Notes under the pieces: generated by a model
Told to the model about the DNA's origin: nothing
The model's database searches: none
Seen by the model: only the letters and a program-made list of their open reading frames with translations
Position numbers and translations under genes: made by a program
IMG/VR virus record: IMGVR_UViG_2534681697_000027
Coordinates: 1 to 31,309 of that record
DNA: 31,309 nt
From: a virus
Lineage: Duplodnaviria; Heunggongvirae; Uroviricota; Caudoviricetes
Reading direction: 5' to 3' (one strand)
Shown: positions 27,938 through 31,309 of the stretch, piece after piece
How the letters are laid out: each line of letters starts with the position of its first letter
How positions within the stretch are numbered: position 1 is the first letter of the stretch

Positions 27938-28011
27938 TAGTAAATACCACTCAATCATCAAGTAATCTATATTTTTCATTTAACGAAAGGGTTGGGGGAA
28001 TTAATAGGATA

Positions 28012-28341
28012 ATGTTGCTAATAGGTCCTCAGACATCACCAGAAACATTAACCCCTGTTATATATAAAGATGATGATTCTATATATGCACATTGCTATAA
28101 TGTCACCGTTACGGCAAGTAATAAACCACAAATAATTGAAATTATTCCTGTGTCATCTCCGCTGGATTTTAATTATTTTGGCAGATTAAGGTTATCGTTG
28201 GGTAGGCCATTGCAGCTTGGTTGCTCGTCAAGCGTTCCTGGAGTTAGATCACCTATTTCATCAAAATTACCATTTAATATGTATAACGTTGTTGGAAACA
28301 CCACATCACCTTACGTTATAATTGCATTTGGGAAATTATAA
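28012..28341 (+). CDS. Hypothetical AT-rich ORF, 109 aa
   Basis: ORF convergent with the acyltransferase gene and sharing its hairpin terminator; no recognisable motif. Confidence 0.25.
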   Translation: MLLIGPQTSPETLTPVIYKDDDSIYAHCYNVTVTASNKPQIIEIIPVSSPLDFNYFGRLRLSLGRPLQLGCSSSVPGVRSPISSKLPFNMYNVVGNTTSPYVIIAFGKL

Positions 28342-28342
28342 A

Positions 28343-28364
28343 ATGGCGGGCTTTCGCCCGCCAT
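28343..28364. terminator. Hairpin between convergent genes (bidirectional terminator candidate)
   Basis: ATGGCGGGC-TTTC-GCCCGCCAT, 9-bp GC-rich stem. Confidence 0.5.
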
Positions 28365-28368
28365 TAAC

Positions 28369-29472
28369 CTAATTAATTGATTTTGCCAATTTAGAACCTG
28401 CTATCATTAACGGTTTTTCTAATAATCTGTAAGAAATATACCCAACAACAATTACTGTGGCAAAAGATAAAGCGTAAACATATGGAATGTTATATTTGAT
28501 GTGAGCCTTTTTAAGTAACGCAAACCAAATATCAGCGACTATTGGGTGCAACAAATAAATTGAATAAGATATTTGCCCAAGTATTTCAAGAGAAATAAAT
28601 GCTGTGTTTTTTATTTTAACGTCTGCAATGTACACACATACTATGAACAATATACATGACAATGATAAAACAACTCTAGTTACACCATAATTTATTGCTA
28701 TAGAGTCTCCTTGTGCAGGGAAAAAACAAAACACAAAAGCAGACACTAATGCGCATAACAATATTGTGGTATTATTTTTCTTTAATTTCTCTCTTTTTAT
28801 TATCCTATATGAAATAACTCCAGACATAAAGAAAAAAAGCTGGTTGAATGGATTAATATATGTTCCCCATTGTTCAGCAAGCGGTATTTCTTTATCAAAT
28901 AAGAAAAAAGCAAAATATAGCCATGATATCGCGCTGACTAAAAATAAAATATTCATTAAATATTTTATTTTTACTGATAAAAGATACGCTATGCATAAAA
29001 TAGCATAAAATACCATTTCATTCCCTATGGACCATGCCCCTGTTGAAAAATATGAAGTAGGGGATATGAATCCAAAAGTTAAAGTGTAGTTTAATATCGC
29101 TTCATATGTCGGAAATATAAAATCATGATTAGATAAATATCTCTGCATTAGAGACAATGTTATCGACACCCAAAACAGAGGAGCAATTCTAAAGACACGT
29201 TTGATACCAAAAGACATAGCGCTTTTTGCATTGTTTATTGTTCCATCGTATACATATGCAAGACTTAACCCGCTAAGAACATAGAATGATGAAACGGCAT
29301 ATACTCCAAGCCTTCCTAATATATGTTCACTACCTAGCAATCCGGAACTACCAGACCACGAGACATAATGGTAGATAACTACACTAAGAGCCATCAACCC
29401 ACGCAAATAATCTAAAGATTCTACTCTGTTACTAGTTTTCACAGTATTGTTGCCTATAGTTATTTTTCCCAT
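28369..29472 (-). CDS. Acyltransferase-3 family membrane protein (O-antigen acetylase-like), 367 aa
   Basis: N-terminal LDYLRGLMALSVVIYHY motif and about 10 predicted hydrophobic segments; strongly AT-rich. Confidence 0.7.
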   Translation of the reverse strand: MGKITIGNNTVKTSNRVESLDYLRGLMALSVVIYHYVSWSGSSGLLGSEHILGRLGVYAVSSFYVLSGLSLAYVYDGTINNAKSAMSFGIKRVFRIAPLFWVSITLSLMQRYLSNHDFIFPTYEAILNYTLTFGFISPTSYFSTGAWSIGNEMVFYAILCIAYLLSVKIKYLMNILFLVSAISWLYFAFFLFDKEIPLAEQWGTYINPFNQLFFFMSGVISYRIIKREKLKKNNTTILLCALVSAFVFCFFPAQGDSIAINYGVTRVVLSLSCILFIVCVYIADVKIKNTAFISLEILGQISYSIYLLHPIVADIWFALLKKAHIKYNIPYVYALSFATVIVVGYISYRLLEKPLMIAGSKLAKSIN

Positions 29473-30172
29473 TTCATTAACTCTACCAGATCATAGGTAT
29501 CGAAGTTAACGATACCATAAATTAATAAAGATAGTCATAAAAATAATTTGATATATTATGCTACTATGTTTCATGAGTGATACAAATACAAAAGATAGAA
29601 TGTAAGTTCATCAAAAATGATGTAAGTATCACGTATAAGATTAAGTTTCACGCTTATAGTTCTCTACGTTATAATCAATCTGAAAAATGAAGAGATGGCT
29701 ATGCATAAGGACGATTTTACTTGGCATCATATTATATCTGTGATTAAGTCTATTGAAGTCGGGCGAGCCGTAGAGATTCATTCCGCGATGATTCTTTTTA
29801 GCGGATTCACCATCAAGTGTTATCTATAGCGGTTCATGAATAATGCGAAAATGGCGATGCGTGATGGTTAGTTTGTGGATTAAAGTATCGAAAAGCAGTT
29901 CAAGCTTAAATGTTTCTTAATTGTTGAAAATTCATGTATGCTGCGTTTTGCGTGTTGAATGGTTATAAAATATCGATAGCTATCTTGCTCGCCATCACCG
30001 ATGATGCCTTTGGTATGATGGAGTGTATTACTAATACATACTCTATCATATGAATTTTATGAAATATCTGTTATGTGATACAAAACTGATGTACACAAAG
30101 TTTTGCAATCCAGTGCAACGCTTTGCGCTCTTCGATAATGGTTAAGGTCGATTACTCTACCTTTTTATCAAG

Positions 30173-31309
30173 TCAGTCCGCCCACCACTGCATCATTTCT
30201 CTGCGCTTATCGAGATACTGCGCATGGTTGTAAATCCCGCGCACAGATCCGCCGTTGGCATGTGCCAGTTGCACTTCAATAGCGTCAGCAGGCCATTCGT
30301 GCTCGTTCATAATCGTGCTGAATTCATGCCTGAATCCGTGACCGCTTTCCAGACCCTCATAGCCGATTTGTTTGATCACAAGCAATACCGCGTTCTCGCA
30401 GATTGGCTTCTTCTTATCGTTGCGCCCGGCAAAAACAAACTCTGATACTGGTTTGGTGATGGAGCTTAGCGTAGTGAGAAGTTCAACCACCTGGTCTGAC
30501 ATCGGGACCACATGAATTTTGCGTCCCTTCATCACACTGGCGTCGATGGTGATAATCCTGTTTTCAAAATCGACGTTCTTCCATAGCATGGAACGAAGCT
30601 CTTTCGTTCTTAGGGCTGTGTAGCGTAAAACTTTGGTCGCAATGAGCGATACGATACTTCCTGAAAATGTTGCCAGTGCTTTGTTGAATGCCGGGAGCTG
30701 GTCTGCAGGAAGAAACGGGAAGTTCTTCTTGCGGTATCCCTTCATGGCGTCAGCAAGATCAGGTGCCGGGTTATATTTAGCCCTTCCGATGACAATAGCG
30801 TAACGGAAAACCTCGCCGCATCTTCTACGTGCTTTGTTGGCTCGCTCCATTGCACCGCGATCTTCAAATCTGCGGATTACTTCCAGCAGTTGCATCGGCT
30901 CAATATCCTGAATTTCAAGGCCGCCGATGATGGGTAAAATGTCGTCATCAAACATTTTTGCAAGTTCAGTCGCATACCCTACTGACCAGACTTGCTTCTT
31001 GTGTTCGTACCATTCCTTGTAAATTGCACTAAAGGAATTGTTGTTAGACGAAGCCTTTTTCGCCTTTACCGGATCGATGCCAACCGAGATGTCTTTCCTC
31101 GCAGTCCATGCTTTATCCCTTGCCTCCTGCAAAGTCATAAGCGGATATTTTCCGACAGTCAGGATTTTCTCCTTACCGTCAATCTTGTAGCGAAGCTGCC
31201 ATACCTTTTTCCCTGACACAGGGACATAAAGGTACAGGCCATTACCATCGAGTAGGCGGTATGGTTTTTCTTTCGGCTTTGCTGCTTCAATCTGCTTAAC
31301 GGTGAGCAT
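30173..31309 (-). CDS. int: P4-type tyrosine integrase, 378 aa; start codon is the last three bases of the window
   Basis: N-terminus MLTVKQIEAAKPKEKPYRLLDGNGLYLYVPVSGKKVWQLRYKIDGKEK typical of P4-family integrases; C-terminal HGFRH...RGIYNHAQY catalytic region. Confidence 0.85.
   Translation of the reverse strand: MLTVKQIEAAKPKEKPYRLLDGNGLYLYVPVSGKKVWQLRYKIDGKEKILTVGKYPLMTLQEARDKAWTARKDISVGIDPVKAKKASSNNNSFSAIYKEWYEHKKQVWSVGYATELAKMFDDDILPIIGGLEIQDIEPMQLLEVIRRFEDRGAMERANKARRRCGEVFRYAIVIGRAKYNPAPDLADAMKGYRKKNFPFLPADQLPAFNKALATFSGSIVSLIATKVLRYTALRTKELRSMLWKNVDFENRIITIDASVMKGRKIHVVPMSDQVVELLTTLSSITKPVSEFVFAGRNDKKKPICENAVLLVIKQIGYEGLESGHGFRHEFSTIMNEHEWPADAIEVQLAHANGGSVRGIYNHAQYLDKRREMMQWWAD

Follow-up and report, generated by a model that had tools for sequence, protein, structure and literature searches.

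An integrase-acyltransferase block in Shigella boydii ATCC 9905 as the argW end of an Sf6-like prophage joined by an insertion sequence to a lambdoid prophage

Inspection of the right-hand end of the virus record IMGVR_UViG_2534681697_000027, a stretch of 31,309 nucleotides referred to here as the window, raised the question of why a P4-type integrase gene lies beside an acyltransferase gene at positions 27940-31309, and whether this adjacency is itself the product of a rearrangement. An earlier note on this DNA had taken it to suggest a rearranged or composite island end, on the ground that integrase and conversion genes are usually separated when the phage attachment site attP is split on integration. 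The block is the surviving end of an Sf6-like prophage, consisting of the integrase, a membrane acyltransferase gene and the cut-off tail of a tailspike gene, which is an ordinary and well-known arrangement, and this end is joined by an insertion sequence (IS) to an unrelated lambda-like prophage. With a probability of roughly 0.85, given jointly for this identification and for the mechanism and history proposed below, positions 27940-31309 represent the part next to attL of a temperate phage, P22-like and of the Sf6 type, that is integrated at the tRNA-Arg(CCT) gene argW of S. boydii ATCC 9905.

The source of the window is Shigella boydii ATCC 9905, with whose contig AERN01000081.1 it shares 100% identity and from which the acyltransferase is recorded as EFW53639.1; a literature search on the strain and its accession found nothing relevant. 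The block is AT-rich where the earlier note had placed it, with a GC content of 0.33 at positions 27940-30075 against about 0.50 at positions 1-27939 and a return to 0.48 in the integrase gene (by segment 0.346 at 27940-28341, 0.319 at 28369-29472, 0.327 at 29473-30075, 0.482 in the integrase gene and 0.502 in the lambdoid part). Its open reading frames (ORFs) are 28012-28341(+) with 109 aa, 28369-29472(-) with 367 aa and 30173-31309(-) with 378 aa. From the outside in, the module consists of argW/attL, an IntS integrase, a spacer of about 700 bp, an acyltransferase of the acyltransferase-3 (AT3) family, a shared terminator and the tailspike. Genes for P22-like virion proteins are absent from the window itself and are present in the same element at two other loci, L004 in the complete S. 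boydii genome CP026875.1 and L033, where coat, gp4, gp10, gp26, gp14, gp7, gp20, gp16 and the Head_binding domain of the tailspike were found. No ORF of a gtrABC glucosylation cassette (GtrA flippase, GtrB bactoprenol glucosyltransferase, GtrC) was detected between the integrase and the IS.

Regarding the integrase, profile search identified the domains Arm-DNA-bind_3, Phage_int_M and Phage_integrase, as expected of the P4-type enzyme recognised in the earlier note, and the gene shares 96-97% DNA identity with E. coli intS and with int of phages Sf6, HK620, CUS-3, IME10 and Kapi1. A TGG to TGA change at 30173 (W379*) removes the last seven residues (WLDKKVE) of the protein, which is present at its full 385 aa at L004, L006 and L033 as well as in E. 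coli IntS and Sf6 Int; since the ancestral stop codon lies at 30152-30154, the ancestral spacer measured about 680 bp. The window ends exactly on the integrase ATG, and extension to the right in the source contig (L003), a check that the earlier note had proposed, led to the tRNA-Arg(CCT) gene argW with an att core 161 nt upstream of this ATG, beyond the end of the window, followed by yfdC, mlaA and fadL, the same flank that argW has in E. coli. The att core at the 3' end of argW is CTGCAGGGGACACCATTTATCAG, the same as the annotated attP core of HK620 and Sf6, and the contig thus has an IntS-type integrase gene with attL at the argW 3' end upstream of it. A second att core (attR) was not found in the window with up to three mismatches allowed.

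In argW phages with an IntS integrase, attP is located on the 5' side of int, and int therefore remains beside the conversion gene after integration. The annotated order in Sf6 is tailspike(+), terminator, oac(-), oac promoter, int(-), int promoter and attP core, the order in HK620 is tailspike, terminator, O-antigen modification gene(-), int(-) and then attP, and E. coli chromosomes carry argW-intS-gtrA-gtrB-gtrS. The rule that int is separated from the conversion genes, as stated by Sun et al. (2012; PMC3630932), holds for thrW phages, and the order in Sf6, HK620 and E. coli shows that it does not extend to argW; for Sf6 lysogens the same study described a structure downstream of argW that agrees with the Sf6 map. 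The slot between tailspike and integrase has also been regarded as the candidate location of a seroconversion gene in the Kapi1 paper (PMC8787464). The order tailspike, terminator, conversion gene and int, with the last two on the same strand, is shared by the window, Sf6, HK620 and L033.

An intact relative is the P22-like prophage at L033, in which scaffold, coat, gp4, gp10, gp26, gp14, gp7, gp20, gp16 and mnt/arc are followed by a tailspike of 664 aa (P0138), a convergent AT3 acyltransferase of 367 aa, a spacer of 680 bp, an integrase of 385 aa and then yfdC, mlaA and fadL. It is collinear with positions 27940-31309 at 98.5% identity with one gap, with seven mismatches in the spacer and none in the terminator. 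Because an intact phage carries the same spacer, the long spacer belongs to the phage and is not a scar formed in S. boydii ATCC 9905, and since the gene order recurs in Sf6 and HK620 and L033 is collinear, integrase and conversion gene were not brought together by a rearrangement.

The 109-aa ORF had been described in the earlier note as unannotated, converging on the acyltransferase gene and sharing its terminator hairpin. Convergence and shared hairpin were borne out; the ORF itself, to judge from its alignments, is not a gene, being the 3' stump of a tailspike gene cut by an ISSfl7-like IS. The frame has no stop codon between its first ATG and the IS edge at 27940, so that it comprises 133 codons, of which the 109-aa ORF is the part from that ATG onward. 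The encoded sequence matches residues 532-664 of the 664-aa tailspike P0138 at 98% identity, the C-terminus of a 763-aa tailspike at locus L008 at 80% and the end of the 'tail fibers protein' of phage vB_EcoM-ZQ1 at 52%. All homologues are C-termini of tailspikes or tail fibres of 664-763 aa, with no free-standing small gene among them, and dN/dS against the L008 copy is 0.13 in the coding frame and above 2 in the other two frames. Neither this ORF nor the short frames of the spacer gave a family match in Pfam, PHROG or equivalog profiles. A word-indexed protein search with a 137-aa tailspike fragment returned no match, although the 98% identical P0138 was in the same collection, and negatives of this kind for short queries are not evidence of orphan status. 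At L004, where the N-terminal part of the tailspike is preserved, its P22 head-binding domain shares 87% identity with the Sf6 counterpart, whereas the receptor-binding domain is unrelated to that of Sf6 and only residues 1-118 match; intact 664-aa copies are named in E. albertii and E. coli genomes. The hairpin between the two converging stop codons, AATGGCGGGC-GAAA-GCCCGCCATT, has a stem of ten pairs, seven of them G-C, followed by a T-run in the terminator scan; in the L008 cassette a C-G pair is replaced by T-A, a compensatory exchange that preserves the stem, and Sf6 has an annotated terminator at the same position.

The suggestion of a composite end stands insofar as the window combines two elements; the joint, however, is the IS at 27019-27939 and not the adjacency of integrase and acyltransferase gene. 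Homology to Rac-SA53-type phages ends at about 27018-27022, at the left edge of the IS, and tailspike homology begins at 27940, at its right edge, which marks the IS as the true composite joint. The element carries DUF4096 and DDE_Tnp_1 domains, is labelled 'IS5-like element ISSfl7 family transposase' in E. coli records and is 100% identical to an inverted copy at 7717-8637. In the complete S. boydii genome CP026875.1 the same IS lies inside the tailspike gene of the argW prophage (L004), with the N-terminal 384 codons on its other side, and also beside hok in the same lambdoid prophage (L031), 673 kb from L004; positions 27019-28400 of the window are continuous with the former locus and positions 20275-27940 with the latter. 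The two copies in CP026875.1 are in opposite orientation, so that recombination between them would be an inversion yielding the arrangement of the window. Both halves of the junction are therefore on record, and the 673-kb inversion that would have brought them together is presumed. Beside the IS, 440 bp of the tailspike gene have been lost in S. boydii (L004 12454-13606 compared with L033 11154-11593), so that taking out the IS would not restore a continuous frame across the two halves in CP026875.1. A simple IS insertion into the tailspike gene was ruled out, as the halves are out of register without the IS and the 440 bp are gone; the target duplication, TA, is uninformative. The earlier note had also considered that the integrase could belong to a separate island, and it does stand apart from the lambdoid prophage, in the company of the acyltransferase gene and the tailspike remnant.

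Regarding the acyltransferase, the 367-aa product matched PF01757 (Acyl_transf_3) with an E value of 7e-27 and 94.8 bits (cut-off 31), residues 18-347 covering profile positions 2-324 of 326 as the single Pfam domain, with no fused SGNH domain, and matched PHROG 3333 'O-acetyltransferase' with an E value of 3e-56, in keeping with the earlier assignment to acyltransferase-3 proteins akin to phage O-antigen acetylases. It has no housekeeping equivalog in profile searches (a weak match to MdoC/OpgC reached 17.6 bits against a cut-off of 338) and no similar sequence in 5,426 complete E. coli genomes, in which near and distant DNA searches with the cassette around the gene likewise gave no match. 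Among 50,697 phage records there was no close relative of the protein, the best being 27% identical, and the cassette DNA gave only short flank matches. Residues H35, R92, R95, E152, Y303, Y306, H309 and E352 are invariant across 46 homologues, and the first three of them have aligned counterparts in Sf6 Oac and Sf101 OacB, namely the histidine of the first transmembrane helix (TM1) and the RxxR motif; the two arginines are presumably the counterparts of the critical R73/R76 of Sf6 Oac. A crude hydropathy count of membrane helices was uninformative and was replaced by an AlphaFold model (pLDDT 93.9, pTM 0.91), which is all-helical. The best matches among solved structures were to HGSNAT, an acetyl-CoA-dependent transmembrane acetyltransferase (probability 1.00, TM 0.47-0.52), with GWT1 lower in the list, which agrees with the common fold put forward for these families (PMC12423673). 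With its Pfam domain, TM1 histidine and RxxR motif and polytopic all-helical fold, the protein belongs to the AT3-only class. The start codon is either ATG 29472 (367 aa) or GTG 29442 (357 aa); homology to a second copy of the cassette, described below, stops exactly at the GTG, NCBI annotates 357-aa versions, and model confidence is low at residues 1-10. A dN/dS of 0.13 against the L008 homologue points to purifying selection on the gene.

Homologues of about 50% identity occur in a Serratia prophage (L019/L020), converging on lysis genes that follow an 866-aa tailspike-like protein, in Klebsiella (L021), between two IS3 copies in the manner of a composite transposon, and in Pectobacterium (L017/L018), beside IS3 debris at icd. 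As a side observation, homologues of the acyltransferase recurrently adjoin IS3-family copies, and others are found at prophage ends beside a tailspike; the IS3 pieces near the homologues of about 50% identity have no DNA similarity to the IS3 fragment of the window.

The spacer at 29473-30172 contains, as the earlier note had stated, no ORF of at least 60 aa; the short frame reported there exists, at 29695-29829 with 44 aa rather than as 45 codons from 29697. This frame is evidently the decayed start of an IS3-family orfA transposase gene and not a gene of its own. At 29621-29777 a stretch of about 155 bp has 72-73% identity to IS3-family copies in 1,017 E. coli genomes, namely to their left end and the beginning of orfA; the alignment begins at the terminal TGTAAGT, passes through the orfA ATG and ends after about 27 codons, so that the fossil comprises the terminal repeat TGTAAGTATC..., the leader and the first ~27 orfA codons. 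It is a fragment only, and a complete IS3 element, with two TG...CA repeats and orfA/orfB, is not present; tblastn found no further transposase pieces in the spacer. A miniature IS3 derivative was considered as well, and a solo left-end fossil was preferred, as the sequence at 30066-30081 that might serve as right repeat has no more than 81% complementarity and extends into DNA that is also conserved in E. coli. Between the acyltransferase start and the fossil the sequence is free of mismatches against L033. The part from 29778 to 30075 is also conserved in L033; its ORFs do not exceed 39 aa, it matched no Rfam family, and searches of phages and E. coli genomes found no DNA resembling it.

The last ~97 bp of the spacer are about 80% identical to the intS-gtrA spacer of E. 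coli (L001 6001-6095) and recur 75 bp upstream of oac1b in Sf101 (L002 4001-4096), there not beside an integrase, as well as in Stx phages, mEp234 and phage 434. The block contains a hairpin at 30081-30106 and, at 30152-30172, the seven terminal codons with the stop codon that the 385-aa ancestor of the integrase had. The block could mark the border between modules, or it could be a regulatory element that O-antigen modification cassettes have in common. By inspection it contains no GATC that would suggest phase-variation control of the gtr type. A promoter scan of the spacer found no strong sigma-70 consensus and 10 promoter-like sites against 13.2 expected in shuffled sequence, and no promoter is claimed since such sites are no commoner than in shuffled sequence. 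An Rfam scan of 27900-30300 gave nothing above threshold; a candidate isrI inside the tailspike remnant, at 22 bits against a cut-off of 45, was rejected as sub-threshold.

In L033 the low GC content extends from about 400 bp into the tailspike gene, just past the head-binding domain, to about 100 bp short of int, and the tailspike receptor-binding domain, acyltransferase gene and spacer therefore form one AT-rich cassette of about 3.7 kb. Much of it is found a second time at loci L008-L010, where a 763-aa tailspike is convergent with an 80% identical AT3 acyltransferase in a different prophage backbone: positions 27940-29442, that is the tailspike end, the terminator and the acyltransferase gene minus its first ten codons, have 79% DNA identity, and the tailspike copy at L004 extends the match by a further 667 bp at 81%. 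It is tentatively suggested, as a possibility on the doubtful side, that the cassette is a self-contained receptor/anti-receptor unit that moves as a whole between unrelated podovirus backbones (P22-like at argW and L008-type), IS3-family elements perhaps helping, and that its acyltransferase adds an undescribed acyl factor to the O-antigen of S. boydii, E. albertii or E. coli hosts. If so, phage receptor specificity and exclusion function would be exchanged together.

Compared with known systems, the module is most like that of Sf6 (Lederbergvirus, argW), with which it shares int (96.5% DNA identity), gene order and strands, the att core, the position of attP upstream of int, the head-binding domain of its relatives' tailspike (87%) and an AT3-only acyltransferase with the histidine and RxxR. 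It differs in that Oac is not orthologous (~22% identity), the tailspike receptor-binding domain is unrelated, the phage of the window is a remnant, and the spacer, 155 bp with an annotated promoter in Sf6, measures ~680-700 bp with an IS3 fossil here. The CPS-53/KpLE1 end of E. coli K-12-type chromosomes has the same site, the same flanks (yfdC/mlaA/fadL), intS at 96-97%, the ~97-bp block and an O-antigen modification function directly downstream of int, whereas its cargo is the three-gene glucosylation cassette gtrA-gtrB-gtrS and not a single acyltransferase, and its intS-gtrA spacer is 150 bp long. Loci L008-L010 share the convergent layout, the hairpin and 79-81% DNA identity from the tailspike receptor-binding domain to the acyltransferase start; their tailspike N-terminus is another one, without the P22 head-binding domain, and the AT3 gene lies beside holin, GH19 endolysin and Rz genes. 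Tailspike N-terminus and lysis cassette of L008 presumably resemble those of epsilon15/phiV10-type phages. In the P22-like phage Sf101, Oac1b/OacB (S. flexneri 7a and 1b) is likewise an AT3 O-acyltransferase convergent with the tailspike, with the conserved 96-bp block 75 bp upstream of the oac1b start codon, but OacB has only ~23% identity, and the integrase is of another type, divergent and separated by another gene.

The following mechanism and history are proposed. In the intact phage, attP, int, the spacer, the AT3 acyltransferase gene, the shared terminator and the tailspike gene follow one another. By analogy with Sf6 Oac, whose function and role in exclusion have been reviewed (PMC9558356), the membrane enzyme would take an acyl group from acyl-CoA in the cytoplasm and pass it through the inner membrane to a sugar of the O-antigen; the O-antigen of the lysogen would then no longer be a substrate or receptor for the cognate tailspike, resulting in superinfection exclusion and a changed serological factor. 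Entry of the ISSfl7-like IS into the tailspike gene with loss of 440 bp alongside, as seen in S. boydii, would have been followed in ATCC 9905 by recombination of this copy with the inverted copy beside hok in the lambdoid prophage ~673 kb away, and inversion of the chromosome between them would have brought the tailspike stump next to the nin-Q-lysis-head region of the lambdoid prophage. The gene for the acyltransferase and its terminator are still intact; the integrase lacks its last seven residues. Several points weigh against parts of this proposal. Identity to Sf6 Oac is only ~22% and not significant in pairwise BLASTP (E 0.14), so that the O-antigen function is deduced from family, fold, conserved residues and gene linkage; at this distance the protein is not an Oac orthologue and represents a different AT3 subfamily in an Sf6-like module. 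No promoter can be assigned in the spacer from its sequence, so that expression of the acyltransferase in S. boydii ATCC 9905 is uncertain. In Kapi1 the O-antigen change was not accounted for by the gene that lies between tailspike and integrase (PMC8787464), and CP026875.1 is the only record with the exact 392-aa product of the tailspike N-terminal part.

Regarding alternative explanations of the structure, the adjacency of integrase and acyltransferase gene could itself be rearranged, with the 700-bp spacer as the scar between two islands. The spacer is indeed unusually long beside the 155 bp of Sf6 and the 150 bp of E. coli intS-gtrA, it holds the end of an IS3-family element, and homology to other IntS phages ends at varying points 15-100 bp past int. 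The intact P22-like L033 nevertheless has the identical series int, spacer, AT3 and tailspike with seven mismatches in 700 bp, and Sf6 and HK620 have a conversion gene in the same slot with attP across int, which makes a scar very improbable; for the same reason the event that left the IS3 fossil predates the phage lineage and is no feature of the island end in the window. A reading of the 109-aa ORF as a small gene in its own right, such as a moron or accessory gene that uses the shared terminator, is scarcely credible. It has an ATG start, 109 codons and a stop just ahead of a good terminator, and the first homologue search did not reveal a larger parent protein, but that empty search was a tool miss, the ORF has no family match of its own, and its frame runs on to the IS edge, over its full length corresponding to the last 133 residues of tailspikes (98%, 80% and 52% identity). 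An origin of the lambdoid joint by IS-mediated deletion, or by independent transposition with adjacent deletion, and not by a large inversion, is rather unlikely. It would fit the loss of 440 bp adjacent to the IS in the tailspike gene, and the N-terminal tailspike product is not on record for ATCC 9905. The IS copies of CP026875.1, however, are inverted and each continuous with one side of the joint, inverted repeats giving rise to inversion, and a deletion of 673 kb around argW would take out much of the core genome.

Regarding function, the acyltransferase may act on another glycan, such as enterobacterial common antigen, capsule, osmoregulated periplasmic glucans or peptidoglycan, or may be silent cargo. 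AT3-only proteins do act on many different acceptors (PMC9558356), the protein has the weak MdoC/OpgC match (17.6 bits vs 338), the Kapi1 slot gene is without detectable effect on the lipopolysaccharide (PMC8787464), and the Klebsiella and Pectobacterium homologues adjoin IS3 sequences and not a tailspike. Against this, the gene is inherited together with the tailspike receptor-binding domain in two phage backbones and is likewise convergent in the Serratia prophage, the slot is occupied by oac in Sf6, by an O-antigen modification gene in HK620 and by gtrABS in E. coli, and a dN/dS of 0.13 indicates purifying selection, so that another target or silence is considered unlikely and O-acylation of the O-antigen, blocking the cognate tailspike as in Sf6, is the probable function. 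The features of the block are collected in Table 1.

Table 1. Features of the Sf6-like prophage end and of the adjoining insertion sequence, in window coordinates
Feature	Positions	Strand	Basis or remarks
ISSfl7-like IS, IS5 family, 921 bp	27019..27939	+	transposase frameshifted, ORFs 27082-27531 and 27411-27926
Tailspike 3' remnant, final 133 codons and stop	27940..28341	+	open frame to IS edge; tailspike identity
Hairpin of a bidirectional intrinsic terminator, used by the tailspike and acyltransferase genes from either side	28342..28365	.	terminator scan
AT3-only integral-membrane acyltransferase, intact; probable O-antigen O-acyltransferase	28369..29472	-	PF01757, PHROG 3333
Acyltransferase upstream region, presumed promoter and 5' untranslated region	29473..29620	-	free of mismatches against L033
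IS3-family left-end fossil, under the 44-aa frame 29695-29829	29621..29777	+	72-73% identity to IS3-family copies
AT-rich spacer part without matches	29778..30075	.	conserved in L033
Conserved block distal to int, with ancestral integrase end and hairpin 30081-30106	30076..30172	-	~80% identity to E. coli, Sf101
IntS-type (P4-family) tyrosine integrase, nonsense change W379*	30173..31309	-	96-97% DNA identity to argW phages

The remainder of the window, positions 1-27018, is a lambdoid prophage on the minus strand with hok, rem, DUF1367, ybcO, Q, a tRNA cluster, lysis genes, a TrkH-like gene, terminase, portal, head and tail genes, interrupted by several IS elements. The identical inverted IS copies at 7717-8637 and 27019-27939 bracket 18.4 kb of lambdoid DNA, from the nin region to the head genes, a segment that could invert. 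IS110-family (ISEc20-like) elements form direct repeats at 11656-13100 and 21391-22850, each with a 398-aa transposase and identical over at least 300 nt. A TrkH-family potassium-uptake gene of 491 aa at 18615-20090(-), with a GC content of about 0.38, is located between the lysis genes and the small terminase gene; it looks like a moron and is annotated in related phages too. Four tRNA genes at 23517-23827(-), for Met(CAT), Arg(TCT), Thr(TGT) and Gly(TCC), lie between the Q region and the lysis genes. The hok/gef-family toxin gene at 26813-27073(-) abuts the IS, and because the listed 86-aa ORF begins within the IS, its native upstream control of the mok/sok type has been cut off.

Thus, the integrase at the end of the window is not part of the lambdoid prophage that fills it, and the annotation changes accordingly: the 109-aa ORF becomes a tailspike remnant, the 44-codon frame an IS3 relic, and the prophage 'region' two remnants fused at an IS. 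The IS joint records a probable 673-kb inversion ending in two prophages, which is typical of genome decay in Shigella. The module is of the well-known serotype-conversion type with a poorly sampled AT3 subfamily, and current understanding is unchanged; the co-inheritance of tailspike receptor-binding domain and acyltransferase over two backbones is a clean example of modular exchange. Judged from sequence, the intact acyltransferase is a candidate for determining an acyl modification of the O-antigen in S. boydii, in E. albertii and in some E. coli strains, which bears on serotyping, vaccine antigens and phage susceptibility.

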